From positions 1-63,612 of IMG/VR virus record IMGVR_UViG_3300037485_001761: a DNA stretch of 63,612 nucleotides. The stretch is one strand, 5' to 3'. The position numbers and the translations under genes were made by a program. The DNA comes from a virus. Its lineage: Duplodnaviria; Caudoviricetes. Shown in pieces: positions 1-63,374 of this stretch. The notes beneath the pieces were generated by a model. That model was not told the origin of the DNA. It made no database searches and was given only the letters and a program-made list of their open reading frames with translations. The first letter of the stretch is position 1; the number at the start of each line of letters is the position of its first letter.

Positions 1-2
1 CC

Positions 3-728
3 GAGATTGTAAATAGCCGCATTAACGTGGATGGCGACTTAGACCCTTATTATATACTAGGCGCTAGCCAATTAATGAGCCTCCGTTCCTCGGACTCAAC
101 CGCAGTTCCTGCCGGATTTCCTAACGCTGCTGCCGTTGGAGATACCGGAGTTCTTCGTTTAGTGTGTCGCGATGTTGGAACCGGCGTTAACGGAGCCAAT
201 GTTACCGCAATGCATCAAGAGAATGCGTTGTGGTTGGCACCTGCGCAAAACTGGACTGCGTTATTTGATATTAAACAGTGGACAGAAAGAAACGACGCAG
301 TAACCATTCAGTTCTCTGAATTCGGTTTAGCTTCAACTATCACGGCTTCAGACTTGATTGACCCAGCCAAGGTTCCTGCTTACGGAAACGGTAGCACAAC
401 CGACGCCCCGTTTGTTGCAATCAAACTTTACGGAAACCAAGGCCGCATTATCTGCCGTGCTACTACAGGCGCAGCGCTGCAAACTTCTTCGGCATTTAGC
501 CTTCCTACGGGCTCTTTCCTCTGCCGGTTGGAATACAACCACGGAGCAACCAGCGGAACTCCTACGTTAGCTCTGTATGTAAATGAGCGTCCGGCTACAA
601 GTCTGAGCACTCGCATCACTGGCCCCTTACAGATTTTTGCGCGAAACTGTCATGCGGCTGGCTATGTTGCGGCAACTGCGGCACCAAGCGTTCTTGATAT
701 TGATATGATCGCTGTAGCGTTAAACTAA
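3..728 (+). CDS. Beta-rich probable virion structural protein, 5'-truncated by window edge
   Basis: Frame is open from nt 3 (ORF track starts at GTG 27); Ala/Thr/Gly-rich beta-type sequence; lies in late-gene direction. Confidence 0.5.
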   Translation, partial: EIVNSRINVDGDLDPYYILGASQLMSLRSSDSTAVPAGFPNAAAVGDTGVLRLVCRDVGTGVNGANVTAMHQENALWLAPAQNWTALFDIKQWTERNDAVTIQFSEFGLASTITASDLIDPAKVPAYGNGSTTDAPFVAIKLYGNQGRIICRATTGAALQTSSAFSLPTGSFLCRLEYNHGATSGTPTLALYVNERPATSLSTRITGPLQIFARNCHAAGYVAATAAPSVLDIDMIAVALN

Positions 729-1383
729 TTTGTGGCTCAAAGTACTTTGATTTAAGTTCTCTGACGTGCAATTTCCCTTGCAAGCAGAGAGCTATTTGGG
801 CATTCTTTCTCTCTATTCCCAGCACTCTTCTTACATTATAATAAAACATTCCTGTTAACTTTTCACTCTCAGACAAATTAACGATGAAGTGTTTTCCTTC
901 TTCTAAGCCCAATTCTTCTGCGGCTTCCGCAACAATAATCATCGTTTTCTCTTCCATCGGAACTTCAGGCACGTACTTTGTCCCGTATTCGTTGGTAACC
1001 ATTTTTCCTCTCTTGTCCCTGTAATCGACCTCCTCACTTAGTGAGGTGGTTAAAAGCTGTCTTTCGCATTCCAGGAAATATTTTCTGACACGTCTTCCTA
1101 TTTCTGTCTCCTCAACCATCGCCAACTCTTTGGACATGTTTAATGTCAAGTAATAGTCTGATTTTGAGGTTCCAGATTTGGAACCTGAAGAACAGGACTT
1201 GGGTTGACGTATCTCAAAGTCAACGTTCTTGACGAATTCGTATCGCTCGATTTGTCTTTTCATCCAGGTGGAAAAATTAGAAGCCACCTCCAAATTCCGA
1301 TGAAGCACTGACGCCTTCACAGGAAACTTGGAACCGGTTAATTTTGTTAAAGGGAATTGATTTTGTAACGCTAAACTTGACAT
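616..1383 (-). CDS. AntA/AntB-family phage antirepressor-like DNA-binding protein
   Basis: LHRNLEV..NFSTWMKRQIERYEF..NVDF and DYYLTLNMSKELAMVEETEIGRRVRKYFLECE are typical AntA signature motifs. Confidence 0.9.
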   Translation of the reverse strand: MSSLALQNQFPLTKLTGSKFPVKASVLHRNLEVASNFSTWMKRQIERYEFVKNVDFEIRQPKSCSSGSKSGTSKSDYYLTLNMSKELAMVEETEIGRRVRKYFLECERQLLTTSLSEEVDYRDKRGKMVTNEYGTKYVPEVPMEEKTMIIVAEAAEELGLEEGKHFIVNLSESEKLTGMFYYNVRRVLGIERKNAQIALCLQGKLHVRELKSKYFEPQISLTLQRSYQYQERLVPQLPQHSQPHDSFAQKSVRGQ

Positions 1384-2765: not shown

Positions 2766-4037
2766 GTGAATACAAAAGAAATGGTCACTAATGTCCGTGA
2801 ATTGGTACACGAGTATCAAACTGATCCAATAAGCGATTCATATATCATTCACCGTTTAAACAACGCATATGTTTACGCTTACAATCATTTCGTCAAAGCC
2901 AACTATGAGCTTTACGGAATTGCTGAAGACTTGCAACTATCAGCCGGTATCTTTGAATATGATTTACCGGAGAACTTATTCAACAAACGGTTGAAAGTTC
3001 TCGCTGTTCCTGCTCCTCCGAATGAATCTACGAATCCTTGGAGCTGGCAACCGGTTAAAAAGGTTACTTATGAACAGGCTTTAGTATATCAAACAACGAG
3101 AATCCGCACCTATTACCCTGAAGTGTGGTGTCAGCTCAACAATAAAGTTTACATCTTTCCGCCTCCTTTACAGAGCTACAAAGCAAAACTTATTGTCTCC
3201 AGAAAGATTCCTCCTCTTGGAGTTTTCTGTGGTACTATTACAGAACTCCGCAGTAACGAGATATTCCTGAGTGAGCTAAACGATAGTGAGGTTGAAGATA
3301 ACGCGGGATTCAATGATACCGCCTTTATCTCAGTAAGTGATTGCGATACCGGTGAGGTTAAAGCGCTGTATTCTTATTCAGCGGTCAACACAACGACGAA
3401 GAAAATATCTCTTCAAACCTCTCCCCGGAAATACGCGAAAGCCGTTATTCAGGATTTAACGTACACCGCAGTAACCGCTGGAACGGGTGAAGAACTCATC
3501 AATATAACGTATGTAGGGGGCGGAACTGCTGGAGCGGAAGTTGTCACGGTTTCAGGGAAAGCTATTTCTGTTAAAATTCAAAGCGCGGTATCTACAGCTA
3601 CGCAAATACAAACAGCGATAAATGCCTCGGCTGCCGCATTGCTGTTAATCAGTGTCGCGGTTACCGGAACAGGCGGAACAGCTCAGACGATTCAATCAGC
3701 TTATTACTTAATAGGTGGAGAGAATGATTTCAAGGGTTGTACCATCTCGGAATTGCCGGGAACTCAATGGGGAACGATACAAGTCGGCGACCTCGTAACC
3801 TTTGGATACACAACTGGAGCTTCGGTTTATGGTGAAGCGTTTGATAATTTCCTCATTGACTGGGCAGTAATGCGCGTCAGAGGCGGTATCAATGAAACCG
3901 ATAAAGAAACCGAAAACGCCTTAAAGCTTATGCTTCAAGAACTCATGGGAGACACCGGTGGACGGCCTATGGGAATCAATATTAAAATGGTGGAACGGAA
4001 TTACTACGGACGCAAGATAATGAGGATTAGCCGATGA
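2766..4037 (+). CDS. Head-to-tail adaptor / tail tubular protein A-like (P22 gp4-like) with an inserted ~95-aa domain
   Basis: N-terminal MNTKEMVTNVRELV..I..LNNA helix, EYDLP and YIFPPP motifs typical of podoviral adaptors; overlaps next gene (ATGA). Confidence 0.6.
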   Translation: MNTKEMVTNVRELVHEYQTDPISDSYIIHRLNNAYVYAYNHFVKANYELYGIAEDLQLSAGIFEYDLPENLFNKRLKVLAVPAPPNESTNPWSWQPVKKVTYEQALVYQTTRIRTYYPEVWCQLNNKVYIFPPPLQSYKAKLIVSRKIPPLGVFCGTITELRSNEIFLSELNDSEVEDNAGFNDTAFISVSDCDTGEVKALYSYSAVNTTTKKISLQTSPRKYAKAVIQDLTYTAVTAGTGEELINITYVGGGTAGAEVVTVSGKAISVKIQSAVSTATQIQTAINASAAALLLISVAVTGTGGTAQTIQSAYYLIGGENDFKGCTISELPGTQWGTIQVGDLVTFGYTTGASVYGEAFDNFLIDWAVMRVRGGINETDKETENALKLMLQELMGDTGGRPMGINIKMVERNYYGRKIMRISR

Positions 4038-13600: not shown

Positions 13601-14377
13601 GCGAAACCTTTAACGCAGCAAGAAGCAGGCAAAGCAGTGCTTAAAGAAGTGTACCGCAAAGACCCTGAAAGATTTAAGCGAGAGATAAAAGAATCACTAC
13701 CAGGGTCGGAAGTTACTTATGATTCCACTTCCAGCACGTACACTGTAAAAACTCCTGCGGGATTAGAAATCGTAATGCCTTCTACCGAAACCTTTATCGA
13801 TAAAGTTTCTGATAGCAAAGGCTTTGGTTCAGATTTAGTGACCCAACTCGGTGGAAGCCCTGACCCTAGCAAAATGTACACTCAAAAAGATATTCAAGAT
13901 TTAACAGCGTCGGGCGCTCAACCGGGAGGAGGATCTAATTTCCTCCGCACTGACTTTATGCGCAACCAGATTCTTGCCCTCAAAGATACTGTAGAGAAAG
14001 CGGTTCCTGGATTAGACGGAAAAGCAAAAGTTAACATCGACAAATCAGGAAATGTTATCATTATTCCCCAAAGCCCAGATGGAGTTATCGACGAAGTGAA
14101 TGGAATCCGCATGACTGTCGACCCCCGTACCAATAAAGTGACAAGGATTGATTACAACGGTCAAGCAGTAGAGCCAACAATAGACCCCAAAACAGGGGAC
14201 ACTGTCTTCAAGCCCGTTAGAGGCGTCACTCCTGTAGAAGTAGCAGCGGATGAAGATTACAACGTGGCAGCGGGAAAAGTAGCACCTTCTGTAGAAGGCA
14301 AGCCAATGACAGAGAAGAGAGTAAAAGAGACAAAGAATGAGAATACCCGAGAAAATAGGTACGCCAAAGATGTTTAG
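10613..14377 (+). CDS. Large internal virion (ejection-type) protein with an 82-aa internal duplication
   Basis: 1254 aa, helical/coiled-coil; position between nozzle and endolysin as in podoviruses. Confidence 0.55.
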   Translation: MTRKFLMGLRTPSDWMTRNTQSQFKKPTTETGLTPKQQDMAGSMYPGAFKPSEPVPQDETVNATEMRQEKAQTQIQKPEKQEAKRKEMEQSGIGMAVAEASSKIGIFKYKLQEEVNNFLTQGPTETGLQSYVGTDGLVHTGTVNATEMRQEKAQTQIQKPEKQEAKRKEMEQSGIDMAVAEASPKIGIFKYKLQEEVNNFLTQGPTETGLQSYVGTDGLVHTGTSQDALNPAVAEKQGAQQGILNTMRPFLEQTGAGGFKAKQFKDVASGLFANPTADTSRLIQMVDTLDMLEDQGMSQTTEAQALRAQLEEMDTFGIASDLRNTKKTYEQLMGAGRQDPTKWYGETGKEGNTALELATLSSTNIQDELEKAMVSASGLFSGEVESSLKKTFDTQSAQAERASKWSQEANTQLSSALDTVLKEERGEFGTAKDNLYKVLDQVKGPLNEIMKKYPEATFWGDMMQDTGSFYEFITTALNDPESGIAAEDRAMLRKYLGDAAGEQGQFSMWLDELSSTGGFTVVQEDANGVPKETTLRPDGAMKNQITRLLSDPNVDKQWALGQVKEMMYNVKIDPSTTVRSFFGDLLSGVKDLSDTKATQQEFTTSLEKTMAGFLGTKTEDIFKRGMTELLKDSGIPGLDKMTTAALKLEFDKLPPNVKAELTTQIQKELQSVMGGQEIAYTKAMQAGTKDAKEAVGTKLKEAQSELSRLNTLKAKNTNLVNEAFGKLWTNLQTQRTAVNAATPKLRTEIDNSPWFQQMISYGLAKPEDAASIANAMSMEKLLPVLKQLNPAIGAGLPNLALYFDVANGVVDLKGIAKYYDAVEKVAGEILGNPGKYSETFADMYRQTAEGKQLLEQQVSRDKQISEAINTLAGTVTNLNAMNSTVDGFVSQLGKKLPIVMDAGQVVNTLLGAAQGDALTGENLAPTLEGMGVEQDKDGNFFLNFGGKYIPIDADTLNKIVEAKNANVKSAVAESDLLKGVTTQGLGASNLPGNMTIAKPLTQQEAGKAVLKEVYRKDPERFKREIKESLPGSEVTYDSTSSTYTVKTPAGLEIVMPSTETFIDKVSDSKGFGSDLVTQLGGSPDPSKMYTQKDIQDLTASGAQPGGGSNFLRTDFMRNQILALKDTVEKAVPGLDGKAKVNIDKSGNVIIIPQSPDGVIDEVNGIRMTVDPRTNKVTRIDYNGQAVEPTIDPKTGDTVFKPVRGVTPVEVAADEDYNVAAGKVAPSVEGKPMTEKRVKETKNENTRENRYAKDV
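10789..11284 (+). repeat. 246-bp in-frame tandem duplication (10789-11034 / 11035-11280)
   Basis: Direct sequence comparison; three mismatches seen; AACAGTCAA/AACAAGTCAA microhomology at the junctions. Confidence 0.95.
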
Positions 14378-23900: not shown

Positions 23901-24155
23901 TTATTGTCTGCCAAGCAAGCGGATACCTACGCAAAACAAGCGTACCAATATGACGCCATGTTGACAGAGTTAGACGCTGACTTGAATCTTTTGATACAAT
24001 CAGAAATGGTACCAGGGAAGAAGCCATTGGAAAAGATTAAGAACAAAGTAGCTCCGACTATGCGGATACCAGCTCCCGAAATATTCTACCGAGAACTTTC
24101 TCCTGAAGAGAAGGTTATCCAGCAAAACTCTATTTTACCCAGAGGAGGTAAGTGA
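17910..24155 (+). CDS. Giant (2081 aa) internal virion/ejection protein
   Basis: Size, helical composition, Gly-rich hydrophobic stretches; last gene of virion block; no catalytic motif recognised. Confidence 0.55.
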   Translation: MATEEEVDTEETGADENYQYAPPKPVVDDEALAIAKAELAQEAQPAQEQPAPAPVVATPKAPPIQRKGEVTAVELDPEESAILDKISEMASRKPLSFKELGDAIKGKPYADQQKIIEENEAIRVGEAQTPDFMAEVMGKLGTLAKDTAHTVFPTLVDPATAEENKQYYKPIFGRKSTPISQWYDPKTKRIPANKLEEFLAYEHAGLTPEKKEFVTSRVLSAVSDIPPEEIIKGRVLGNSSSSIAKLAQTMDALLFQEAGSKYAAYGINKFLREKPKMPPEFFSPEVKNYIKDNLHNGGSVGTNLFELQIPTDAKNADEAMKEMWNTYAGAARDMYFEVGKNKLAANAGVPLLFVGSRGIGALANPLTTIAARRGVKFGGQLIASFVEGGLMASPTEAEGKTWTSTLAAGALGAGFHAVGEGVAKVFSSKAGVDVDASPRQNRELQKERQVAEAFPNAKTEHLMQVARGEVDIPNVLESDKPALRQKAGEMAKGQVIKDVVGDVPISPETMEVVLNQGVRDKRVQEQLDHMMAITDGVTPQQKMTDTAFKKTMAQMPKETAELMQGLRDSADYKLALESPERMQELLRSKGLEHAYSPFDYELQKTVANKPSMYRQYLIESAKILTDNLDETKLTRYDLGKSSSRTIRNLIEMSDNPVDFNTSVGTWRDLSTDLADKVVKMSDTASYLKKIDDPRIQFVREHIDEAVANNRQIDRGYVIQELKKIGEDTGQTGLTGRMTSQVMAYNNILNKMGEVKQDIQNSVSKTNNVNVARETANKRVLPHENLIKSAGSYDDPVAVAARFNEHINPAMQNPKIPAEVRAATDNFIKQSSINVAAGAQIPKAFVDGFKLEVEKAKGVVGINSLRDLAGAVEHWNKEIGHIDSLKETLGQSFDSPSSLSKLIPAFQQASKDVISPVNLERLDTYHSYLSSVWTQALEGTGLPDKTKLQLFSYLFGGTEVKLKAEADPGNMIRTQEHAQNVLDALTSNSREVLDTLNNIHQEVLGVPLNREWFLANIATPLNDFNSGRAVEKLLLDVKSYSKHVETAREGKGNPSTAYLDSLNSEMRDYEIVKKTNLSVGNDFSELQGYERLASHRMTKEFGGLIKEAETKIKGKWGLSGFSEIAGKLTGSRGLAGLYDVMYLQGRDGVASLTDVGRLTKNIFTSDSRFAEYKKLFEDYKTHGNPEKLEKFVEVAMQASGIEGAKIAQLKTKNFVNHFINYFSDPILWASHIDQAMWREGFEYISYANKARAKSWDIHEEVIAAHNEAYKHKDVNLQPRKWREDYVTTKKENNTALTDTHDSIYLTEDLSRRFGSSLKGQLDKANEIGVEQLMHPARGLIQDLQAMVRDSHTAHSKSYLQEHGVLLQALGYTAESKAIAEAIKRETPAAIGEIRRNLSKVNTYNFLQNVDALGAAPIINTIFKSLGYYLPQILLSHPASIIKNVIQQGLRQASFTKGGVAAIPQFYWSTLRGFLSDSYMPMASYITPASHKAVNRVGKLLTDNVKRSEVKFIDQMSQITDKAGSRKDVAGKVVEALTGITPKNAMSPIARGARFLERVVDTSAEGATGLLKERVEAKMSKASLARGAYVFEKALAVYQKEGIQGMYEYLKPQMGTKTNTHVWNLAQTVDRITKEGGDPFAHAIDDFILMYHDNAVGRFGPRNSPLILTKLGASTLMPMGTRFFSAKTNDLYRMGMTGRELHSAAGKLSAGHKIPPAIGGRILWSMMTASGIGLTTWGLYEGVESILGTSTQDRSDMEQETALRRMYRHGTGIDITGTAPIDVKFYKDLGSKIYQGDLMGAGGIAATAFIDSSRQRGIPFAGPELMEVWNSLKTLNETTGDKIPILDRITSNLDRMTAELNKLNQERAQIAQTPEGYSKEHVAGIDTRIEKLIEDVSVTKAKYEKSMYAGIADHILNNFPATAWLAHGFHPFTVATSYLDAQANEQLNRDKWEALAEDGKVGPLGLIQQFMGMTAQGDRNIQVSQAFYSRYYQPMVEHGLLSAKQADTYAKQAYQYDAMLTELDADLNLLIQSEMVPGKKPLEKIKNKVAPTMRIPAPEIFYRELSPEEKVIQQNSILPRGGK

Positions 24156-24217: not shown

Positions 24218-25483
24218 ATGGACAAGCCATCGTCAAAGTTCCTGGAATACGTCAAAGTTCTTAAAAATTGTGAGCTAGAGTTTCCCGCGTTAAAAGTGGC
24301 AATTTTGGCACAATCGATCATGGAGTGTGGCGTCGGTGTCACCAAATTATTTCAAGATCACAATAACCCACGCGGTGTTCATTACTATGATTTCCTGAAA
24401 AAGTACGCGGTTGGCGTTGATTATGTAACCGATACTGAACCTGATGGCCATGGGGTATTTTGCAAGTTCTTTACGTTGGATGACGCGGCTAAATCATACT
24501 TTTTATGGTTCGATTATTGGCCACATTATGGCGATTGGCGCGTTTATGCACGCAAGACGCCAACAGACTTTTTGGCTTGGATTGGGCCTCATTACTGCCC
24601 TCCTGGTTATACTGCGAGTTGGGCAAGTCAGCATGGTGGCCTCAATTACCACCAATATATCATGCAAAATTTGTATCCCGAAGCAGAGAAATTGCTAGCA
24701 GCGGCGCAGACAACTCCAACAAATAAGTCCTACCGTGGCGAGCTTGACCCGACGACGATGAACTTCCGAATCATTGAAGAGCCGGGCTCCGTGGTTTATG
24801 CCACCGTGAAAACGGAACAAGGAAGAAATCTCCATCTCCTCGCAGGAATTAAAGCAGCCCTTGACCTTGGGGCCTATCGAACTCTTATCGTTAACTGGGA
24901 CAAGGCAACTCCTCCAATTCCTCCCGTCGAGCCTCCCAAACCCCCGAGCAAAGTTAAAACGATCTACGTCGAACCCGGCCATAGCAAATCGGTACAAGGC
25001 GCTCAAAGCCTAGGCGCTGTTAACGAATATGAGATGAATGAACTCGCTGCAAAAATTATGATCGAAATGATTGAGGCATCAGGCCATAAGACGAAGACAC
25101 TGAATCCTGACCCCGACAATTTAGACACAGTTGGCAACGGGGCTAAAGGATGCGATGCCGCATTTTCAATTCATCACAATGCGTATGACAAAAAAGAGCA
25201 TTATTTCCGCTGTTATTTCGCGAAAACTCCCAAAGCATCCTCGGTTTCCCTTGGTAATAAAATAGCCATTGCGGTAGCCAGTGAGCTTAAGCTGCCTGAA
25301 GTAAACAACGAGAATTCTGGATTCACTGTACCGAATATCTTTAATGGAGTTTGTAGCGGCCCTTCAATGCTGTTAGAGTTATACTTTATCGACGCCTATA
25401 AAGACCGAGCAGTTATCGTCGACCGAACTACAAGAGCCGCGAAAGCCGTAGCACAGGAGATTATTAAATGGGCCAATTCATGA
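24218..25483 (+). CDS. Endolysin: N-terminal glucosaminidase (GH73-like) plus C-terminal Amidase_3 domain
   Basis: AILAQSIMECG..HNNP.G in N-terminus; IYVEPGH, E, FSIHHNA, LLELYFID Zn-amidase motifs; Pro-rich linker. Confidence 0.85.
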   Translation: MDKPSSKFLEYVKVLKNCELEFPALKVAILAQSIMECGVGVTKLFQDHNNPRGVHYYDFLKKYAVGVDYVTDTEPDGHGVFCKFFTLDDAAKSYFLWFDYWPHYGDWRVYARKTPTDFLAWIGPHYCPPGYTASWASQHGGLNYHQYIMQNLYPEAEKLLAAAQTTPTNKSYRGELDPTTMNFRIIEEPGSVVYATVKTEQGRNLHLLAGIKAALDLGAYRTLIVNWDKATPPIPPVEPPKPPSKVKTIYVEPGHSKSVQGAQSLGAVNEYEMNELAAKIMIEMIEASGHKTKTLNPDPDNLDTVGNGAKGCDAAFSIHHNAYDKKEHYFRCYFAKTPKASSVSLGNKIAIAVASELKLPEVNNENSGFTVPNIFNGVCSGPSMLLELYFIDAYKDRAVIVDRTTRAAKAVAQEIIKWANS

Positions 25484-49206: not shown

Positions 49207-51564
49207 TTACTTAACCGTGGAAACCGCGGTACAGGTAATCTGTCCACCGGAAGGATTTAACTTCAACCGGAAATACTGAGGTTGGATGCTATTAACTGTC
49301 CAAATATTTGAAGTCTGTCCCGCCATATTTACCGCTTCTCCTCCGTAGCCCGTAGGAACATCTTCCCACAAACTGTTATCGACTGACCACTGAAGGCTGA
49401 GAGTTGCTGCAAACGCGGCTGCGGTTACCGTGTGTTGTCCTGTTCCGTCTCCGGTGATGGGAACCGCTGTTCCCGCCAACGCATTAGCTAGTGAAGAGGC
49501 AAACTTTAACGTGTTGTCATCGATACGAATCGCGTAATAATTCTGTGCCGCTAAACCCGCAGGAAGCCCACCTCCCGTAGTCAATGCAAACAAAGAACCG
49601 GTAACGAGAGTGTGGCCTGTAATGAAAACTCGGTTAGGAAGTGCCTCGGTTGACTTGGTAAAGTCATTGTCGACACCATTTTCTAACGGAGTTGCTGCGG
49701 TAACGACTTGTGCAGCCGCTCCATTTCCAGTCACCGAAACATCCACCAAAGCTGCTGCGGGAACCGAAGCATCGACAACCGTTTTCACCTGGGCCGCCGT
49801 GGTTACGCCGGTTTCCAGGTAAACTTGAATCGCGCTTGCCGTAACAACTACTTGTGCAGAAGCCCCGGCTCCACCATACCCGCCCGCTAAATTAGCGACC
49901 GCAGAAATGGCTTGAAAGTTACCCGCTGTTCCCGTGATTGAAGTATCCACTAAAGCCGCAGCCGCCACCGAAGCATCCACCGCAGCTTTAACCATTGTTG
50001 CTGTCGAATAAGCCGGGGTTAAGGTATAAGTTGTTGTGGCATCGCCATCAGAAGCAATATCAATTGCCGTAGCTCCCATTGCGTTGGCGTAGGAAGTTGC
50101 AAACTTTAGCGTGCTTCCGTCAATCACAATAACCCAAGAGGGGGTTACGAGATTTGTGGGAAGTGTTCCACCGGTTACTGCTACTTTATTTCCAGTTGTG
50201 TAGCCATGAGTAGGAACTGTTATCGTATTGGCGGTTTGATTGACTGAGGAATTGACGCCACCTGCTAACGCGGTAGCAACTTGAGCAATTTGTTGATTTG
50301 TCCCGGTGCCGGAAACCGTAATATCGACAAGAGCGGCAGAAGGAGCGTCTGCCTCAACCGCAGTTTTAATTTCAGCGGCAGAAGTTCCCTTTGGAACCAC
50401 TGTGAAAGTACCCCCGGAAGTGCCTTGGTCGGTAAGGTTTACCGCGCCGCCGCCGAAAGTAGCCCCTAACTTGATCAAGCCAGGAGCGGAGTTAACCACC
50501 CAATAATCTGTACCGGTAGCCAGTGGATCGGGCAACGTTCCGCCTGGTGAAGTAAGCCGAACTCGAACACCGTCGACTAAAGTATGCCCGGCAATGGCTA
50601 AAGTATTGTTGCCAACATGAACGCCGGAATTTACCCCACCCGCTAATGGCGTAGAAACCGTTGGCGTGACTGTTCCGGGAGTGGTGACTGCGACTGTCGC
50701 GATTGCGGTAACCGCTGCGACTAAGTCATAAGCTGTCTTAACTTGTGCAGCGGTAGACACACCGGATTCAACCACAATTAAAATCTTGTAAGGGTCTAAC
50801 GCGGTGCCTGTTCCGCTTAACGTAACTGCTTCAGCTCCCGCAGTGCCGCCGCCGTCGAAATCCACTTCGAGGTAAACGCCGGTGTCGCGCACAACTGAAG
50901 TAAAGGTCAGCCCGTTAGATAGCAAAAATGGAGCGATGCCGGAAACAAATGTGCCGGAAGCGTAAACCCCTTGCATGGCAACCGTGATTGCGGAGACTGC
51001 GGCTGAGGAGGATTCTTGCCCCCCGAACCCAGTGTTTGCGTAGGCAACGGTGACAGAATCCCCAGCAACGCCTCTCGTATCGGCGACGTAAGTTAAATCT
51101 TGAATTATCTTAGAAGATGCGGTACCCGTAACAAAAGTTTTCACGGCATAGGAAGCTTGATCCTGGACTGCTACGGAAATAGCGCTGCCTCCAACGGTAA
51201 CAACTTCAGCTCCGGCGGAGCCCCCGGAAGTATAAGCAACGGTAATAGCATTCCCACCACTGCCTTTAGCGTCAGCAGTATAAGTAATATCCTGGATAAC
51301 TTTCGAGGCTTTTATGGAATCAAGATACTGTACAGTAATCGAGTTCCCGGCAGTTCCAACAATATCTGCCGTGTAAGTCAAGTCAGCAATAGCTTTTGAC
51401 GCTTTAACTCCTGAATCAAAGGTAACTACAGCGGGAGTTACTCCGGCCCAGAGGGCGGAAAAAGCCGCACCAAAGAAGCCTCGTGGAACGGTAACTGTGT
51501 CAGAATACGTTAAGTATCCTCGACTGGTTACGGATAAAATGGTGACAGGTGCTACGGTCGTCAT
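49207..51564 (-). CDS. Virion fibre/decoration protein built from nested repeated domains
   Basis: Four DLTYTA/STA.QVK.A modules and three H.L.TG..GG.LP..Y.I beta-barrel modules inside a split jelly-roll-like domain. Confidence 0.7.
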   Translation of the reverse strand: MTTVAPVTILSVTSRGYLTYSDTVTVPRGFFGAAFSALWAGVTPAVVTFDSGVKASKAIADLTYTADIVGTAGNSITVQYLDSIKASKVIQDITYTADAKGSGGNAITVAYTSGGSAGAEVVTVGGSAISVAVQDQASYAVKTFVTGTASSKIIQDLTYVADTRGVAGDSVTVAYANTGFGGQESSSAAVSAITVAMQGVYASGTFVSGIAPFLLSNGLTFTSVVRDTGVYLEVDFDGGGTAGAEAVTLSGTGTALDPYKILIVVESGVSTAAQVKTAYDLVAAVTAIATVAVTTPGTVTPTVSTPLAGGVNSGVHVGNNTLAIAGHTLVDGVRVRLTSPGGTLPDPLATGTDYWVVNSAPGLIKLGATFGGGAVNLTDQGTSGGTFTVVPKGTSAAEIKTAVEADAPSAALVDITVSGTGTNQQIAQVATALAGGVNSSVNQTANTITVPTHGYTTGNKVAVTGGTLPTNLVTPSWVIVIDGSTLKFATSYANAMGATAIDIASDGDATTTYTLTPAYSTATMVKAAVDASVAAAALVDTSITGTAGNFQAISAVANLAGGYGGAGASAQVVVTASAIQVYLETGVTTAAQVKTVVDASVPAAALVDVSVTGNGAAAQVVTAATPLENGVDNDFTKSTEALPNRVFITGHTLVTGSLFALTTGGGLPAGLAAQNYYAIRIDDNTLKFASSLANALAGTAVPITGDGTGQHTVTAAAFAATLSLQWSVDNSLWEDVPTGYGGEAVNMAGQTSNIWTVNSIQPQYFRLKLNPSGGQITCTAVSTVK

Positions 51565-51566
51565 AT

Positions 51567-51731
51567 TTATTCTCCTTTTGGTACTGGAATAGGGGCTTCT
51601 TTTTTCGGCAATTGCTGAATAATTAAAATCAACTCATGAACTTGTTTGAACGATACGTGCGGGTGTATTGCTATTGACAACGCATTAACAACGGCATCCT
51701 TCGTTTGGTTGTCTAAAATAAACTCTTCCAT
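51567..51731 (-). CDS. Small hypothetical protein (54 aa, MEEFILDNQ...), not in ORF track
   Basis: Manual translation; fills gap; its end supplies the GGAG RBS of the next gene. Confidence 0.6.
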   Translation of the reverse strand: MEEFILDNQTKDAVVNALSIAIHPHVSFKQVHELILIIQQLPKKEAPIPVPKGE

Positions 51732-51734
51732 TTA

Positions 51735-51953
51735 TTATTCCTTTGGTTTAGGGCAAGTTAAAGTTCTGACGCATGGCAGCTTATCCGCCAAACGTTCTAA
51801 TACTAAAATCCGAGAGTTTTGTGTAGTCATTCCGACGTTCATCCGTTGCATTTGTTGATTCAAACGGTGCATTTCTCGCCAGATAGCCCCTAGCAATGCA
51901 ACAATGAAAGTGGATAAAACAGATATAATAGCAGAAACTATTTGTGGTGTCAT
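51735..51953 (-). CDS. Single-TM coiled-coil protein (holin-like candidate)
   Basis: N-terminal hydrophobic helix then short coiled coil; AAGGAGG RBS. Confidence 0.5.
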   Translation of the reverse strand: MTPQIVSAIISVLSTFIVALLGAIWREMHRLNQQMQRMNVGMTTQNSRILVLERLADKLPCVRTLTCPKPKE

Positions 51954-51983
51954 AGCAATCGTCCTCCTTGACGCGGTAACATC

Positions 51984-52214
51984 TCACTTCTTCTTCTTCA
52001 CGTTATCTTTTATTTCTGCAAGTGCCCCAAGTATTTCTGCCTTTGTTGCGGCACTAAAAACAGTGCTCTCATTGACAGACTCTTCGTCTGGAATGCAAGC
52101 AGCAAAGCCTATAATCAAATGGGGCATGTATTTCTCGATAGTATTCAACCTCAAATTAAAATACTCGTTTATTTCTGTTTGTTTCCATTTAGAGTCAATT
52201 TTTACTAACGCCAT
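51984..52214 (-). CDS. Small hypothetical protein
   Basis: AAGGA RBS after the fibre gene. Confidence 0.6.
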   Translation of the reverse strand: MALVKIDSKWKQTEINEYFNLRLNTIEKYMPHLIIGFAACIPDEESVNESTVFSAATKAEILGALAEIKDNVKKKK

Positions 52215-52225
52215 AATTATTCCTT

Positions 52226-55186
52226 TTATGCATTATCATATGTTGGGATTCGTCGCGTGACTCCATTAATTATAATCTGTAGGTAGCTAACACCTGCGGC
52301 CGTAGATGTCGTTAATGCCGCTGTATTTAGTGTGTGCAATGCCGTTCCACTGCTTGCGCCAAGCACCCATCCGCCAGTCGAGGCATAGCCCCCCACATCG
52401 ACGTTAAACGCTCCAAAGCGCAATCCAGTACCAACACCAACTCCCGTTTTAACAGACGCTAGCCAGCAATTTCCGCCGGAGATGTCAATACCAAAATAGA
52501 GTTTTGGGTTGTTGGTAGCATCAGTTAGTGCGGTTAAAATAAGGAGAGGATTAGACCCTAAAGTGCCCTCTATGCCGATGATATTATGCTGGGAAGCAGT
52601 TGTAAGAGAAGAAAGTCCTGCCGAAAAAGAGCCACTATCAGCAACGGTTAGTGCGCCGTTATTTATATTAAATCCTGTTGTCGCAGCGTAAATAATCTTA
52701 CCTAATGCCGCTGTCCCCACATAAGACCGCCACCTACCGATATTTAATTGGAGCTGAGTTGCACTGACCGCAACGCCAATTCTCACCGAATAAGCAGTTA
52801 CTCCAGGCTCGGTAGCAGTTATTAAACCGTCTGTTGCAGCACTTAAGTAATAAATGCCACCGACAGTTAATCCCCAACCGGTTTTTGTAATCTTTCCGGT
52901 TTTAGCCAGCACGAAATAATTCGTAGTGGCACCAACAACTACACCGATAACTTCACTTGCTGCTGCTGTGGCAGCCTTTGCTTTTGTGTAAGTTCCCGCA
53001 TTCGAATAAAGGACATCACCAGCAACAAAGCCATGTGCGACGGCGTTAATTAACTCTCTTGAGCCTTCAGAGTTTGAAACAATCTCCCAGTATCCTAAAT
53101 TAATATCCGTAGTAAGTGCGGCGCTTGCTGTGTGAGCAGTGACACATCGCCATTGTCCTACAAATCCTTCGGTAGTCACTCTAACGAAATTTCCGATGCG
53201 ATATGTTTTAGCGGTTCCCCAATCTAGTACAGAATTGTAATCATCAAGCCGATCAGCTAATAATTGAACAGTTGATTCCGCGCCGCTTAGCTCTCCGTTA
53301 AAATTTGTTGTATCGAGAGTAATTGCCGCGCCTGCCGCCGTTGATCCACCAGCATAAGTTTGATTCGCAACTTGTTTTGCTGGGGTTACTGCGACAATAG
53401 ATCCGCCTGCCGCGTTAGTTACCGTGATAAATCCAAGCTGAACGATTTCGAGTGTCCTCAACTGCGCCGAAAAAGCACTAACGTTTCCCGCAGCAATGGC
53501 ATTAGCGGCGGATGCGTTGCTGGCATATGTCCCAGTTGCGTCAAGCTGAATAATGTACGTTGGATTTGCTGAATTAATATCATCTTTAAGCACACCAACT
53601 CGCATATTAGCGCGTTGTGTCCCAGTTAATGCGGTTGCCGCTGTGCCGTTATTCCAAAATAAAGGGGCCGCTGTTGTTGGCGTGCTTAGCTGCGTTAGCC
53701 CGCTTGCCGCTACATAGACGACGCGAAACGTTAGTGCGGTAGCAGCGCTATCGGGGATTGTTGTCTCTAAACCGTGGTCTAGCAGTGTACACGCGCCAGT
53801 TAAATTCACTGTCCTGCTAGCAGCAACCAGCGTTCCTATTGTCGCTCCACCGTTATTTTCGAGCAACGGCCCATTGGATTTATGCAGATATGTCGATGTC
53901 TTTTCTTGAAAATTTGCACCGTGATTTTCTTTAGCCACGACATATGCAGTTCCGTCGCTGTAAACTTCAAATAGAATTATCGTTGTGTCAGAAAGCCCGG
54001 TAGAAGATGTGTTAGTTCCAATTGCTCCGTTGCCGTCAATATAAACATAATTAGTCGCGTAATCAGTGAGCGTGACAGTTTGATTTGCTGCCCATGAAAC
54101 TGGCACTGATTTGATCAGTCCAGAACCAGCTCTTAACAATGTAAATACTCTAGTGCCAACGACATAACTATAAGCAGCCCCAGAGCCGGCAAAGGCAATA
54201 AATCCGCAATGCTCTTCTGCTTTAGGCGTTACTATTGATACGCCAGCGCCCGCTTGTGTTAATGGTCTATTCATCGTGCATTGCATTACTTTTTGGGTGT
54301 CAGCGGCAGCGGTGTCAGTGATATTCATAGTCGTAAAACCGTTTATTACAGCGACACAGTTAGTCTGTAATAGATTCGCCCCAGCTCCGTCAGAATGAAA
54401 TGCTGTCGCTGTTCCTCCAGAGATACCAGTTAGGCGCATGGACAATCCGTTGATAGCCCCTGAGGTATTTGCTGCTACAGTACTAAATCCGCGAACTTCT
54501 CCAGCAAATGTGCCGATAGTATCGGTAAAAAATAGAGATCCACCAGAGATTGTTATTCTACCGGTTGTCCCATTCCGAATTAAAGAGTGTGTTCCTGCGC
54601 TGTAATTGCCTCGCATGGAAACAGCGAGGTTAAATAACGTGACTGTTCCAGTTCCTATTAAATCCCATCCAATAACGTTTTTTGTAATTGTCGCGGATCT
54701 AACGTCGGCAACCGTTGTATTAGTAGACGCAAAAGACGTGCAAGAAGATTTAACCCCAGTACAAATAAAATCTCCACTCCCGATTGCGGAGACGGTGACA
54801 TCGGTAAGACTAAATCTGGTGCCGCTTACATCAACAATAATTTCATTATCCGCAATGGGCGCATAGGATACTGAGATCCCTTTAATTCCTGATGTGCCCG
54901 TCGATGTTATTTTTCCTACAATGAACACAGTGGCAGTAATGCCATTTGTTAGAAATACGCCATCCTTAAGTACTAAATTTTTTGTATAAGTTCCCGGGCA
55001 AGTTATTATTTCATACGGTTTTGTTAAACTATTTGCGTCTGAAATGCTGTCAATTGCATCTTGAATGTCGGTAAACATTGCGCCGCTTTTGCCAACAGTA
55101 ACCACTTGTGCTAGATCTTGTGGAACTAAATTGAATCCAGAACCCGTTAAAGGATTGTAAATTTGTTGTCGTGGTGTATGGGCCAT
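52226..55186 (-). CDS. Tail fibre/spike: beta-helix-like N-terminus, carbohydrate-binding-like module and C-terminal fibre domains
   Basis: VTVGKSG..FTDIQDAID..PGTY (pectin-lyase-fold cap); W....Y..G..V....WRCV.AHT; HGF..GD.LY..IGVV..YYLS. Confidence 0.7.
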   Translation of the reverse strand: MAHTPRQQIYNPLTGSGFNLVPQDLAQVVTVGKSGAMFTDIQDAIDSISDANSLTKPYEIITCPGTYTKNLVLKDGVFLTNGITATVFIVGKITSTGTSGIKGISVSYAPIADNEIIVDVSGTRFSLTDVTVSAIGSGDFICTGVKSSCTSFASTNTTVADVRSATITKNVIGWDLIGTGTVTLFNLAVSMRGNYSAGTHSLIRNGTTGRITISGGSLFFTDTIGTFAGEVRGFSTVAANTSGAINGLSMRLTGISGGTATAFHSDGAGANLLQTNCVAVINGFTTMNITDTAAADTQKVMQCTMNRPLTQAGAGVSIVTPKAEEHCGFIAFAGSGAAYSYVVGTRVFTLLRAGSGLIKSVPVSWAANQTVTLTDYATNYVYIDGNGAIGTNTSSTGLSDTTIILFEVYSDGTAYVVAKENHGANFQEKTSTYLHKSNGPLLENNGGATIGTLVAASRTVNLTGACTLLDHGLETTIPDSAATALTFRVVYVAASGLTQLSTPTTAAPLFWNNGTAATALTGTQRANMRVGVLKDDINSANPTYIIQLDATGTYASNASAANAIAAGNVSAFSAQLRTLEIVQLGFITVTNAAGGSIVAVTPAKQVANQTYAGGSTAAGAAITLDTTNFNGELSGAESTVQLLADRLDDYNSVLDWGTAKTYRIGNFVRVTTEGFVGQWRCVTAHTASAALTTDINLGYWEIVSNSEGSRELINAVAHGFVAGDVLYSNAGTYTKAKAATAAASEVIGVVVGATTNYFVLAKTGKITKTGWGLTVGGIYYLSAATDGLITATEPGVTAYSVRIGVAVSATQLQLNIGRWRSYVGTAALGKIIYAATTGFNINNGALTVADSGSFSAGLSSLTTASQHNIIGIEGTLGSNPLLILTALTDATNNPKLYFGIDISGGNCWLASVKTGVGVGTGLRFGAFNVDVGGYASTGGWVLGASSGTALHTLNTAALTTSTAAGVSYLQIIINGVTRRIPTYDNA

Positions 55187-57223: not shown

Positions 57224-58762
57224 ATGGCATTAGATAAGGACAAGATAGCCTTAATTGAGCAAATTCAGGAAGAATCTATCAACCAGCGAAACCGTTTGGT
57301 GGACTCTTTCATACCTGACAATCCGAAAGCCAAGCCTTTCCCTGCTCAAATCGCCTTTTTGAAGGACAAAAGCCTGTCCAAACTCGCTCGTTGTGGTAAC
57401 CGAGCGGCTAAAACCTTTACTGCCATGCGAGATCTCGCGTGGAAACTTACAAAAACTCACTGGTATCGACAGGATTACAACGTATTTCAAATCCACGACA
57501 AGCGTTGGATGGAAAAAGCGAAGACGGTCGAGCTTGAAACCAGATACTTTAGAACAAAATCAGAGATTCACTGGATTGTTGGCCCGACTTATGAATTCGT
57601 CAACGGTGTGATGTGGACTCAATACCTCGAAAAGATGATTCCTGCTTGGTATATCATGGATATAAAGAAAACCAACCAAGGAAATATCGAATCCGTTATC
57701 TTTAAGAATGGTGACGTTCTCAAGTTTAAAACTTATGCACAGCAAGAAACCACGAAGATGGGTTTCGCGGTAAACAGTGTCTATATCGACGAAATGCCTT
57801 CTGATTACCAGACAATTACGGAACTAATTGTCCGAACTTTTGACTTAGATGGAAGCATTACGTTAAGTTTTACGTCTCTCGTTGAAAACGACGATATTGT
57901 AAAATATCTTGACTCTTCCTGCAATAGCGGGACGATGAGCTTCCATAATTGGGGCATTTACGACAATCCCCATTACTCTGAAAATCCTGAAAGAATGAAA
58001 CGGGTGTTGGCGGAATACGCGAACATGCCAGAGAATGAAAGAAACGCCCGTCTTTACGGCACATGGTTCGTCAAAACTCCCGACAAAGCGGTATTTGAAG
58101 GAATTGAACCGGAGATTGTACGGGATTTTCCCATCCCGGAAACGTGGAGAAGAGTAAGGTACACCGACCCGGCGAGTCACGTAACTGGGCACTGTGAATT
58201 TGCCGAAGACCCGGCAACCGGCGAGTGGTATTGTTACTTAGCCAAAGAGTTAACGTGGGGTCACATCGTTAAAGCGTCCGATATTATGGACGCGATAGAG
58301 AAGTTTAAGCCTTTTCCTAGCTACAGATACCATGAAAGTGTTTATGATAACGCTGAAGCTTGGTTCGGAGCGGAGACTAAAAACAAGGGCTACCGTTCTT
58401 GCATTCTCAAGAATAGAGAAGCCGCCATCATGGCTACCCGTGAATCAGTAGGCTCAAAAAGAGTTAAATTCTTTGAAACCGGAGCGGCCTTACTGTTAGT
58501 TCAGCTTAGAGAGTATAAATTTAAAAAAGATGGATTCGGAGTGGTTAAAAAGAAAGACCACATGCTGGATTGCCTTATGTATTTCAGTAGAGAAATCCCT
58601 AAAAGGATTCCAGTGAATCCAGATTACCAAACGCTTATGCAGCAAGCGATAGCAAACATTCACGCCAATGCCGAAAATATCCCGAAAAAGCAACACTTTG
58701 TGAAAACATTACACACACCTTTTTTCAGTAGATTACCAGTATATAGACGAGGAGTTAGATAG
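57224..58762 (+). CDS. terL: Terminase large subunit
   Basis: AQ..F, GNRAAKT Walker A, VYIDE Walker B, ARLYG.W, TDPA and DHMLDC nuclease motifs. Confidence 0.9.
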   Translation: MALDKDKIALIEQIQEESINQRNRLVDSFIPDNPKAKPFPAQIAFLKDKSLSKLARCGNRAAKTFTAMRDLAWKLTKTHWYRQDYNVFQIHDKRWMEKAKTVELETRYFRTKSEIHWIVGPTYEFVNGVMWTQYLEKMIPAWYIMDIKKTNQGNIESVIFKNGDVLKFKTYAQQETTKMGFAVNSVYIDEMPSDYQTITELIVRTFDLDGSITLSFTSLVENDDIVKYLDSSCNSGTMSFHNWGIYDNPHYSENPERMKRVLAEYANMPENERNARLYGTWFVKTPDKAVFEGIEPEIVRDFPIPETWRRVRYTDPASHVTGHCEFAEDPATGEWYCYLAKELTWGHIVKASDIMDAIEKFKPFPSYRYHESVYDNAEAWFGAETKNKGYRSCILKNREAAIMATRESVGSKRVKFFETGAALLLVQLREYKFKKDGFGVVKKKDHMLDCLMYFSREIPKRIPVNPDYQTLMQQAIANIHANAENIPKKQHFVKTLHTPFFSRLPVYRRGVR

Positions 58763-59017: not shown

Positions 59018-61006
59018 ATGGCAAGGATACGGTTACTGTCAGATGATGAATACATAAAAATGCTAGCTTCGAAGTTTGACGAGTCTAAAAGGAAAATGGA
59101 CAAGCTAAAACCTGAATATGATATGGCGGAAGCCGCGTATCAGGCCATCTCTGCGCCCGCAGACCACGCGGGATTAGATACCGGGCTAGCCACGCAGGCG
59201 TTGTATTCTGGTAAAAATATGCAGCAAGAGATGCCAATGGTTGAAGGATTAGATTTGGCGAAGGCTATCTTATTCCTGCATTCCAAGCTCTGTATTTCTG
59301 ATCCGATTGTGCAATTTAATCCGAGAAAGCAAGACCCAGCTACTAAAAAAGCGGTGGAATGTGCTCAGAACTACCTACCATTCATGAAACAGAGAATGAA
59401 GTTGCAAGAAACCCTGGAATCAGGGCCATATCTTCACCTTTGTGTTCACGGTTCAGGAATTGTTTACAACGGATGGGACGCCGACGGCGGTGAAATGCCC
59501 TTAGATAACTTCCCGGAAGACCCGGTAGCGTTGGAACAAATGCTGCAAAAAGGCTTCAAGATGGAGGGGGATTACGATTTACGGAATGTCCATCCTCGTA
59601 AATTCTTTCCAGATGCTTCGGCGGATCATTGGCAAAACTGTGAAGATTGTTTTGAAGAATGGGAATTACCGTTTGAAGAAGCCATGTATCGCTTTGGTGG
59701 AACAGATCAGCAAAACATTTTGCGTGAATTCCACAAGGTACGCAACGATAGTGCCCAGGCAGAGGCGGATAAAAGTGTAAATCTTATCAAGCTTTACATT
59801 TACCATCAACGGGGCCGCCCTTGGAACGGATTTCTTGGCTCTCAATCTGTTTTCGTCGACCCAGAAGCTCCTCGATTACTGACAAGGAAAGCGAACCCGT
59901 TCACGCACAAGCGTTTACCTTATTCCGTCTACACCGACGTGGATATTCCTAACAACGTGATGGGGATGAGCCGAATTGTATACGGGTACCAGGCACAACT
60001 TTGCATCAATAACATTTTGTACCTTATCCACAAGAACATCGCGCTATTCGGCGGCAATAAAATGCTACTTCCTGAAGGAGCCGTAAACGATGACACGGTT
60101 AATAACTCCTTAGAAGGCGTGAGCTATTTCAACCCCACGACTGGTGGGAAACCTGAGCTAATTCGCCCCGCAAACGTCACAACTGACGTGTGGAGAGCCT
60201 ACGAAATTCAAAAAGCGTACATTAACAATATTTACGGGATGAATGAGTTCTCTCAAGGTCAAATCCCTCGTGAGTTATCCGCCTATGCCGTACAATCTGC
60301 GATGGAAATGGACGACAAATACAGAATCCGGCTGTTTAACAAAAAGAAACTGTTTTTGCGAGAGATATACTACCAGGGATTAGAGAATACCAAGCAATAT
60401 ATGACGGAACAACGTAGGTTAAATATTGTGGGCATCGAAAGCTTCACTAATGACGGGTACTTTAGTGCTTCCTCCTTAGTTGGAGATTACGATATTGACG
60501 TAGACTACGGCCCTTACTTGCCAGTCGACCCCGCTGCGCGAAAATCACAGTTGCTCGAATTTATCAAGAGTGGTTTCTACGAAAAAGCAGGCGGCAACAT
60601 GCGAAAAGCGGCATCACTGCTTATCGACGGCAGTATGTTAGATGTCAAACAAGATTTAGGGCAGTCCAACAAACGGCAGGAAGCGGAAATCGACAAAATA
60701 ATTAATGGAACTGCGGTAGTCATTCAACCTTGGGACGATGACGAGATGCACGCGGCTGCGGTAGAAGAATTCGCGCGGTCAGAAACCTTTGAATCGCTCC
60801 CCGTTGAAATAAAGAAAACAATATGGTCACATGGAGAGGCTCATGTAAAACGTATTGCCGAGAAAATTGCCAAAGGGCAACAGAAACCCCCCGTTCCTGG
60901 GCCACAAGGTAAACCTCCCATGGGGGCTGGCCCCGGGCAACCTGCACAGCCTCCGCCAAATTCACCACCCACACCGCTAGCACAACCTAGCGGGCCAACA
61001 ATCTAA
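59018..61006 (+). CDS. Portal protein (P22-like)
   Basis: 662 aa after terL; VHP..FFPD, NPF, SQGQ..S..A motifs; Pro/Gln-rich tail. Confidence 0.85.
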   Translation: MARIRLLSDDEYIKMLASKFDESKRKMDKLKPEYDMAEAAYQAISAPADHAGLDTGLATQALYSGKNMQQEMPMVEGLDLAKAILFLHSKLCISDPIVQFNPRKQDPATKKAVECAQNYLPFMKQRMKLQETLESGPYLHLCVHGSGIVYNGWDADGGEMPLDNFPEDPVALEQMLQKGFKMEGDYDLRNVHPRKFFPDASADHWQNCEDCFEEWELPFEEAMYRFGGTDQQNILREFHKVRNDSAQAEADKSVNLIKLYIYHQRGRPWNGFLGSQSVFVDPEAPRLLTRKANPFTHKRLPYSVYTDVDIPNNVMGMSRIVYGYQAQLCINNILYLIHKNIALFGGNKMLLPEGAVNDDTVNNSLEGVSYFNPTTGGKPELIRPANVTTDVWRAYEIQKAYINNIYGMNEFSQGQIPRELSAYAVQSAMEMDDKYRIRLFNKKKLFLREIYYQGLENTKQYMTEQRRLNIVGIESFTNDGYFSASSLVGDYDIDVDYGPYLPVDPAARKSQLLEFIKSGFYEKAGGNMRKAASLLIDGSMLDVKQDLGQSNKRQEAEIDKIINGTAVVIQPWDDDEMHAAAVEEFARSETFESLPVEIKKTIWSHGEAHVKRIAEKIAKGQQKPPVPGPQGKPPMGAGPGQPAQPPPNSPPTPLAQPSGPTI

Positions 61007-62732: not shown

Positions 62733-63374
62733 TCACCGACGAATCTCTACCACTACATCGAAGTCCCCGCAGTAGTAGAACATATCGGGTGTTAATCCTT
62801 TAGCCTGCATTATCTTTTTCTCGAATTCTTTAAACCGTTCTTCGTAATTAACAGCAACCCTAATCGCGTCACGCACTAACTCTACACACGAAACAGCTTC
62901 ATCATTCATCAAATCAAATAAAGTATCATAAGGTTTTCCGTAAAATTTTCTCGCTCTGTCCAGTGCTGTCGTCCAATCTTCACGGGTAAATCCTTTAGGC
63001 TTTAAGAGGACAACGGAGTCACAATCAAACACTTTCTCGAAAGGGGAGTAAATTACTCCTTTCCCTATCGCTTCAATAAACTTAAAATCCTCTAATCCGT
63101 TAATTCCGTCTTCGAGGTTCAAAAAAGCGTGTGTCCAATAACCGAGTTTTCCTCCTTTAAGGAGCCCGCCAAGACTGATTAAATAGGTGGTTAAATGCGT
63201 CTTCCTTCGCGTCAGTATCACGTAGTGATTATCTCTGCATAGCTTGGCTAAGTTAAACCAATCTGCCGTGGTGAGGTTGTAGGCTTTCCCATGACTGAAG
63301 AAAGCGTGAATCTTTCCCCAGGAAATGGGAGAAATAATCTTCAATGAAATAAACTTCCATAGAGCTTTTAACAC
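62733..63374 (-). CDS. Permuted papain-like NlpC/P60 enzyme (YiiX/YebB-like)
   Basis: YWTHA (His), IEA.G.GV, GKPYD..F, SCVELV (Cys) in His-before-Cys order. Confidence 0.85.
   Translation of the reverse strand: MLKALWKFISLKIISPISWGKIHAFFSHGKAYNLTTADWFNLAKLCRDNHYVILTRRKTHLTTYLISLGGLLKGGKLGYWTHAFLNLEDGINGLEDFKFIEAIGKGVIYSPFEKVFDCDSVVLLKPKGFTREDWTTALDRARKFYGKPYDTLFDLMNDEAVSCVELVRDAIRVAVNYEERFKEFEKKIMQAKGLTPDMFYYCGDFDVVVEIRR

Follow-up and report, generated by a model that had tools for sequence, protein, structure and literature searches.

A predicted eight-domain nest in a phage protein, built from two modules inserted recursively into a jelly-roll base

According to the excerpted text of a 2026 survey of 2.7 million classified domains, domain insertions are mostly single-level, and the complex nest highlighted there, Si3 of the cyanobacterial RNA polymerase beta' subunit (rpoC2), comprises eight domains in six levels (PMC13114784). 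In the T4 tail sheath protein gp18, as the quoted portion of its description gives it, domain I is inserted in domain II and domain II in domain III, which itself lies between the termini that form domain IV; the constant domain on the inside forms the particle, and the inserted ones are exposed to solvent (PMC3004832). Multi-domain tail sheath proteins, in the extracts available, have extra surface domains made from a single stretch of the chain or from two stretches with a returning strand, and these are proposed to aid adhesion or stability (PMC9230969). Here we analyzed P0001, a protein of 785 amino acids (aa; 785 codons) encoded by an open reading frame (ORF) at 49207..51564 on the minus strand of the IMG/VR virus record IMGVR_UViG_3300037485_001761. 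This linear record of 63,612 bases, with a G+C content of 45% and an estimated completeness of 88%, is referred to below as the window. P0001 was confirmed to parse as J[B1[A1[A2[B2[A3[B3[A4]]]]]]], that is, as eight domains, each lying in a loop of the preceding one.

Because nested insertion is known from gp18 and Si3, the novelty of this protein lies in its depth and its family rather than in the principle, and the P0001 family is a deeper version of that principle in unannotated phage proteins. Si3 is like P0001 in that domains of one fold are inserted recursively and the chain runs out and back, as the survey excerpt describes it (PMC13114784); unlike P0001, it is an insertion in a cellular enzyme, not a virion protein, and has the hybrid motif fold. 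P0001 in turn differs from Si3 in combining two alternating module types with a base, and its relatives cover depths from 2 to 9 in graded steps. The depth of 8 in P0001, and of 9 in its relative P0006, exceeds the six levels that the excerpt highlights (PMC13114784). The sheath protein gp18 resembles P0001 as a phage structural protein with nested domains (PMC3004832, in the portion quoted), and module A may be similar in fold to a sheath protruding domain; in gp18, however, the four levels consist of unlike domains, and no domain is repeatedly inserted into its own kind. Multi-domain sheaths carry their additions on a contractile core, whereas in P0001 the additions account for most of the chain and sit on a small jelly-roll host. 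Searches of open-access literature text turned up no account of a nested phage fibre or of the P0001 family; one directed at nested insertion in tail sheaths gave nothing, and another gave only biosensor papers.

The first-pass annotation of the window had read the nest from 14 short motifs, taking an intact module A in the adaptor gene as a ruler. All 14 motifs occurred in P0001 in a single copy each and in the order given there. On the N-terminal side they start at residues 47 (VTFDSG), 54 (KASKAIADLTYTA), 85 (KASKVIQDITYTA), 142 (KTFVTG), 150 (SSKIIQDLTYVA), and 204 (GTFVSG), and on the C-terminal side at 326 (GHTLVDG), 394 (TSAAEIKTAV), 452 (THGYTTG), 520 (STATMVKAAV), 588 (TTAAQVKTVV), 650 (GHTLVTG), 724 (LQWSVD), and 765 (FRLKL). 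The ruler also held, since the adaptor (2766..4037, plus strand) contains one intact module A at aa 223-318 (3432..3719; positions 2-97 of a 97-position profile, E-value 8e-35).

To place the pieces by coordinates, we used profiles of module A (97 positions) and of the two halves of J, made from 17 collinear proteins of ~300 aa among which P0001 was not a source, and a profile of module B (89 positions) made from seven ~200-aa proteins with an uninterrupted B. Against these profiles from other proteins, the domains of P0001 gave E-values of 7e-8 to 1e-30. The chain begins with the N-terminal piece of the jelly-roll base J (aa 1-45; 51430..51564, all parts being on the minus strand), which is followed by the first strand of B1 (aa 46-52; 51409..51429). 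The N-pieces of A1 (aa 53-84; 51313..51408; profile positions 1-31 at residues 53-83, E 7e-8) and A2 (aa 85-140; 51145..51312; positions 2-57 at 85-140, E 3e-19) come next, then the first strand of B2 (aa 141-147; 51124..51144), the N-piece of A3 (aa 148-199; 50968..51123; positions 2-52 at 149-199, E 3e-9), and the first strand of B3 (aa 200-209; 50938..50967). The innermost module, A4, is intact (aa 210-310; 50635..50937; positions 8-97 at 217-310, E 2e-17). Beyond it lie the C-pieces of B3 (aa 311-393; 50386..50634; positions 8-87 at 313-389, E 9e-11), A3 (aa 394-436; 50257..50385), B2 (aa 437-517; 50014..50256; positions 7-88 at 438-516, E 2e-19), A2 (aa 518-562; 49879..50013; positions 49-97 at 514-562, E 2e-9), A1 (aa 563-630; 49675..49878; positions 31-97 at 565-630, E 8e-16), and B1 (aa 631-717; 49414..49674; positions 5-89 at 635-717, E 1e-30). 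The C-terminal piece of J, with the stop codon, closes the chain (aa 718-785; 49207..49413; positions 2-64 of the profile of the C-terminal half at 719-785, E 3e-13). For the A3 C-piece, the automatic envelope (367-436) overlapped B3, and the alignment read by eye gave a true match at 394-436, covering approximately profile positions 54-97.

The cut points of these pieces are complementary. The A1 N-piece stops at profile position 31 and its mirrored C-piece begins at 31, with real matches over positions 31-53, so that the C-piece includes strands absent from the N-piece; A2 and A3 are cut near position 54, and the pieces that complete them begin near 50-54. Each split B lacks only its first strand, which is found upstream as VTFDSG, KTFVTG, or GTFVSG. 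Read along the chain, the piece types run B A A B A B [A] B A B A A B. This series is perfectly mirrored, for which the chance is 1 in 20 if three A and three B C-pieces are ordered at random; because, in addition, the sole A cut at 31 is completed by the sole C-piece that starts at 31, and this at the mirrored place, the pattern goes beyond chance. Thus, the proposal that the C-halves return in the reverse order of the N-halves was borne out in both the cut points and the order of types. The inserted units also occur uninterrupted: intact A is found in the adaptor, in four tandem copies in the relative P0009, and as A4 itself, and intact B in seven J[B] proteins and in P0086.

When P0001 was compared with itself by BLASTP in a sliding window, N-pieces paired with N-pieces (e.g., 86-134 with 150-198, 49%, E 5e-14) and C-pieces with C-pieces (e.g., 394-439 with 588-633, 48%, E 3e-13), and both kinds matched the intact A4 at 217-310; E-values over the whole comparison went down to 1e-14. 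Conservation level by level between orthologues mildly favored the mirrored pairing, the summed differences between N- and C-pieces being 23 versus 33 for P0003 and 43 versus 83 for P0004; the signal of co-divergence of N- and C-pieces within P0001 was too weak for use. P0001 had no match in Pfam at E-values up to 1 and none in PHROGs, and neither P0001 nor the 17-protein profile gave a meaningful match among PDB sequences.

We next turned to predicted structures. An AlphaFold2 model of P0001 was computed from an alignment of 11 rows, from which the short forms of the family were left out because they were misaligned when short and long forms were aligned together globally with MAFFT. The model had a mean predicted local distance difference test score (pLDDT) of 86.0, with 346 residues at pLDDT >= 90, and a predicted template modeling score (pTM) of 0.53. 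Its topology was read from the aligned ranges of structural matches, in which solved domains of ~75-105 residues each were superposed on segments far apart in the chain. In a scan of all 48,161 solved chains in the PDB, the first 41 of the best 50 rows were jelly rolls with ~76-106 residues aligned, whose first aligned residue was 1-8 and whose last was 782-785; jelly-roll chains superposed on 1..785 had ~95-105 aligned residues. Row 42 was a domain of a phiCD508 tail protein (9gb1_1, residues 99-202; Z-score 7.5) on the contiguous range 210..310, namely A4. Re-alignment of the top 997 chains of Foldseek placed FCCH barrels of ubiquitin-activating E1 enzymes on 42..718 (Uba6/UBA1; 76-78 residues aligned, Z 7.8-8.5), which is B1, and on 199..393 (Uba1; 74-78 aligned, Z 7.6-8.5), which is B3. 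Consequently, the ranges in this model are strictly nested (1 < 42 < 199 < 210 and 310 < 393 < 718 < 785): J, B1, and B3 each fold from two discontinuous segments, and A4 from one. Contiguous, linearly ordered domains, the outcome named in advance as refuting the nest, were not what the prediction gave, and the nested-domain reading of P0001 is supported. The motif-bearing first strands of B1 and B2 appear in the model as strands at residues 47-50 and 142-145, and the two pieces of each split A or B, taken together, have the secondary-structure elements of the intact module in P0087, a 300-aa relative.

The P0087 model itself, computed from 17 sequences (pLDDT 89.9, pTM 0.79), has J on 1..300, B on 44..232, and A on 52..149, and shows the same nesting as P0001. 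A separate model of the exact P0001 sequence is held in the ESM Atlas (pTM 0.41, pLDDT 0.80). On it, a viral protein of 201 aa aligns 191 residues across 1-785 with a template modeling (TM) score of 0.86, and further rows span 142-515, 52-710, 94-570, and 150-411, in agreement with the nesting in the AlphaFold2 model. Whole-model Foldseek searches of the PDB gave no row at E <= 0.001 for either the P0001 or the P0087 model. Foldseek matches in BFVD to large cyanophage baseplate or structural proteins that share the modules had TM scores of ~0.1 and were set aside as uninformative on nesting.

The homologues had been expected to differ in nesting depth, and they range from 2 to 9. A HMMER search of 1.84 billion representative sequences yielded 2740 proteins at E <= 0.001, and the architectures of 208 proteins were analyzed, consisting of 150 of these matches as listed and those from another listing of homologues. 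Full-length relatives were few among the matches listed, namely P0003 (62% identity), P0004, P0005, P0006, and P0007. The shallowest form, J[B] at depth 2, is represented by at least seven proteins of 196-210 aa, and J[B[A]] at depth 3 by at least 17 collinear proteins of ~300 aa. J[B[A[A]]] is found in P0073, P0078, and P0100 (~400 aa), J[B[A[A[A]]]] at depth 5 in P0008 and P0010 (~510 aa), and a five-fold nest of A within J[B], at depth 7, in P0179. P0001 stands at depth 8, and P0006 (903 aa), whose innermost domain is an intact B, at depth 9. In P0081, six N-pieces were detected together with a 30-residue gap that has room for a seventh, followed by one intact A and seven C-pieces. P0021, P0025, and P0014 each have three N-pieces, a foreign center of 110-271 aa, and three C-pieces. 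The center of P0007 (approximately aa 180-295) is likewise a module unrelated to A or B, lying inside an A cut at position 31. In the automatic tally of the 208 proteins, 139 had a match to A and 61 had both N- and C-pieces.

Tandem forms also exist, such as P0009 with four intact A, P0086 with three B, and P0071 with 27 B. Very long tandem arrays of module B were seen in P0071 (2987 aa, 27 copies), P0075, P0076, P0072, and P0077; therefore, the same module expands by tandem repetition in some proteins and by nesting in others. A second host family (P0009, P0101, P0114, P0134, P0188, P0204, and P0206) carries nested or tandem A without J or B and has a conserved end motif, K-A-D-I ... R-L-R-T-K-K-Y. 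In a tblastn search of 50,697 isolated phage records, three records matched, two of them from the same phage, and each match covered part of module B1, so that the family is essentially unseen in cultured phages at the sensitivity of tblastn.

What J, A, and B resemble is a matter of fold and not of family membership. J is a 4+4 jelly roll with its best matches in XepA and YomS: residues 35-140 of XepA superposed with a Z-score of 11.0 (102 residues aligned, root-mean-square deviation (rmsd) 2.6), Tk-SP with 10.4, and the cement protein of BPP-1 (3j4u_H) with 9.6 over 105 residues. The N-domain of XepA, from prophage PBSX, is described in the excerpted report as a 4+4 beta-sandwich jelly roll (PMC6834076); XepA and the BPP-1 cement protein are contiguous jelly rolls without inserted domains, whereas J of P0001 is split. 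Accessory jelly rolls of phage capsids (BPP-1, KHP40, Carin1, VP1, and phage 7-7-1) were among the matches to J, and the cement or decoration chains, alike in fold only, scored 9.6 (3j4u_H), 8.4 (9hz8_0), 8.2 (7dou_4), and 7.6 (8cjz_B and 9in6_c). Module A may be similar in fold to a sheath protruding domain (9gb1_1, residues 99-203; 92 aligned, Z 7.5-8.0, values typical of common folds) and to 3hxl (Foldseek probability 0.96 over 117 columns, E 0.099). It falls below the cut-off of PF17481 Phage_sheath_domII (15.7 bits for P0087 against 31.4), and 4 of the 17 J[B[A]] relatives match that family weakly at E up to 1 (best 0.0025). Module B is like the FCCH domains of E1 enzymes (Uba1 residues 179-259 and Uba6 residues 212-292; Z 7.6-8.5, 74-78 aligned, rmsd 2.2-2.7, 9-19% identity) in fold only, with no functional link; P0001 had no match to the PF16190 E1_FCCH profile at E up to 1, and none was listed for the 17 relatives.

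The presence in the window of a large terminase (57224..58762), a portal (59018..61006), and the adaptor marks it as a phage record and supports a virion role for P0001. The adaptor is of the SU10 type and passes the cut-off of PF24175 SU10_adaptor (29.9 bits against 27), its residues 4-152 corresponding to profile positions 4-129 of 194, and this match ends upstream of module A. Because only that upstream part is covered, module A may be inserted into the fold of the adaptor and exposed at the neck. Proteins with the precomputed Pfam families PF18906, PF04984, and PF11863, which we take to be tail tube, sheath, and sheath-like families, respectively, also carry A and B modules.

Among the relatives, the J[B[A]] gene comes two genes behind the major head protein in locus L001 and three behind it in L003. 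A BLASTP comparison of all ORFs of seven J[B[A]] loci (L001-L005, L009, and L031) with the window matched only P0001 and the adaptor; synteny is therefore unusable, and the modules therefore move between unrelated phages. Loci of orthologues were sought for conserved neighbors: viral contigs gave only distant module matches, a metagenome scan one 1.9-kb fragment, and a genome scan with P0003 nothing.

The best explanation of these results, which we hold to be probable, is that P0001 is one chain of eight nested domains forming a projection on the virion surface, with J docked on the particle. The chain would start in the jelly roll J, leave it after ~45 residues, lay down the first pieces of B1, A1, A2, B2, A3, and B3 in turn, fold the complete A4, and then add the outstanding pieces in the opposite order on its way back, completing J last. 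All insertions would fall in one of three loops: the one that follows the first strand of B, and those of A at approximately positions 31 and 54. A and B would thus act as self-contained plug-in modules that can be inserted into copies of themselves or of each other, which would account for the depths of 2 to 9 among the relatives. P0001 is most likely anchored by J, with its innermost domain at the tip. We infer the anchor because J holds both termini and is the sole constant domain of the family, and the occurrence of A and B as exposed additions in other host proteins, that is, the adaptor and the presumed tail families, supports it. The protein would be elongated, and the two crossings of the chain at every junction should stiffen it relative to a string with single linkers. 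A position of the innermost module at the distal tip fits its replacement by other modules in relatives. Adhesion to the host or to environmental surfaces is the likely purpose of such a projection. More tentatively, and with a confidence slightly short of even, we propose in general terms that uncultured phages follow a so far undescribed building principle, inserting two modules recursively into each other to raise a stiff, double-stranded projection from a jelly-roll anchor, with a length tuned by depth (2-9), an exchangeable tip in mid-sequence, and more levels than the six of the survey; the family would then form a natural series with all intermediate depths.

Several observations weigh against this explanation. 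Both structures are predictions, the one for P0001 rests on only 11 aligned rows, and its pTM of 0.53 makes the relative placement of the domains uncertain. The fold search with the AlphaFold2 model gave no direct row for A1, A2, B2, or A3, for which the basis is the profile coordinates, the secondary-structure inventory, and the ESM Atlas ranges. An automatic test of mirrored against parallel pairing separated only P0006 (3 vs 1), and P0001 tied (2 vs 2) until the over-extension of A3 was corrected by eye. The automatic tally is imperfect: of the 61 proteins, 49 place every N-piece ahead of every C-piece and 44 are balanced, and the exceptions look like cases in which short pieces escaped detection. 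As for the docking of J, its matches to capsid proteins do not stand out from those to GOLD, Eph, PirA, and other generic jelly rolls (Z 8-10), and between orthologues J is conserved less than any other part (33% and 39% against P0003), which a ligand-binding role for J would also explain. The gene context varies as well: the P0001 gene comes after a 986-aa ORF without a family match, the J[B[A]] gene of L004 lies just upstream of the tape-measure gene, and that of L002 adjoins a gene with a tail-fibre-like end.

An alternative reading keeps the same nesting but reverses the polarity, with J as the sugar-binding head at the far end of a tail fibre or receptor-binding protein and the remaining domains as a spacer. 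The fast divergence of J, the position of the gene behind the 986-aa ORF in the same minus-strand block, and the tail-fibre-like neighbor in L002 would suit such a head. A lectin-like J is also hinted at by weak Pfam matches to F5/8 type C domains in 4 of the 17 J[B[A]] relatives at E up to 1 (best 0.0022) and to NedA-like galactose-binding domains in 3 of the 17, and by CBM32 and neuropilin b1b2 among the weak Foldseek rows, but the Pfam matches are far from convincing. Furthermore, both chain ends lie in J, the ~200-aa J[B] forms would be left without a part for attachment, J alone is shared by all members of the family, and A and B are exposed additions and not anchors in their other hosts. 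We therefore regard the reversed polarity as rather unlikely.

Phage fibres are often oligomers, and the halves might pair between chains as a domain-swapped oligomer, or the N- and C-sets might form separate sheet-like arrays. Sequence alone cannot separate pairing within a chain from pairing between chains, and predictions of a monomer cannot show swapping. Nevertheless, both predictors build J, B1, and B3 within a single chain, the cut points complement one another in the mirrored order and in no other, and natural relatives exist at every intermediate depth and with intact modules, while separate arrays would leave A1 without the strands present only in its mirrored C-piece; either arrangement is accordingly very improbable. 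The probability that the pattern is a structurally meaningless artefact of repetitive Ala/Thr/Gly/Val-rich sequence is negligible, for although P0001 is compositionally biased and one automatic profile alignment was over-extended, profiles from other proteins match each piece at defined coordinates, the mirror order is exact, the model is confident over its 346 best residues, and the library holds 2740 matching proteins.

If P0001 is indeed a nested projection anchored by J, phages would have a way to lengthen a surface projection while its termini are kept at the base and its tip is swapped in mid-sequence, which differs from tandem strings of immunoglobulin-like domains and from trimeric fibres. 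For research on protein evolution and folding, depths of 2 to 9 with the same two modules amount to a natural ladder of intermediates, with which one can ask how such nested genes grow and how folding proceeds when 700 residues separate the first 50 residues of a domain from its last 50. For protein design, the family points to three loops that tolerate the insertion of whole domains. Predictors and annotation pipelines that assume contiguous domains will miss such proteins, as the lack of a Pfam or PHROGs match for P0001 illustrates.

In the window, the P0001 gene is the last of a minus-strand block whose other members are ORFs of 166, 144, 263, and 986 aa and three small ORFs. The small ORFs (76, 72, and 54 aa; 51567-52214, minus strand) lie between the 986-aa gene and the P0001 gene; the 72-aa one (51735-51953) has a hydrophobic stretch resembling a membrane helix, and the 54-aa one ends 3 bases before the ATG of the P0001 gene. 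Scans of PHROGs gave nothing for the neighboring ORFs, including the 986-aa ORF (52226-55186, minus strand), or for three giant ORFs on the plus strand of 1736 (4034-9244), 1254 (10613-14377), and 2081 aa (17910-24155), and the 1254-aa and 986-aa ORFs had no Pfam match either. The virion genes of this phage are largely uncharted. A gene similar to an anti-repressor (Ant; phrog_5817, E 9e-24) lies at 9241-9879 on the minus strand, opposite in orientation to the giant plus-strand ORFs between which it stands. Two further genes encode candidate cell-wall enzymes, one with a C-terminal Amidase_3 domain (24218-25483, plus strand; E 3e-12) and the other a C92 permuted papain-like amidase (62733-63374, minus strand; E 4e-7).

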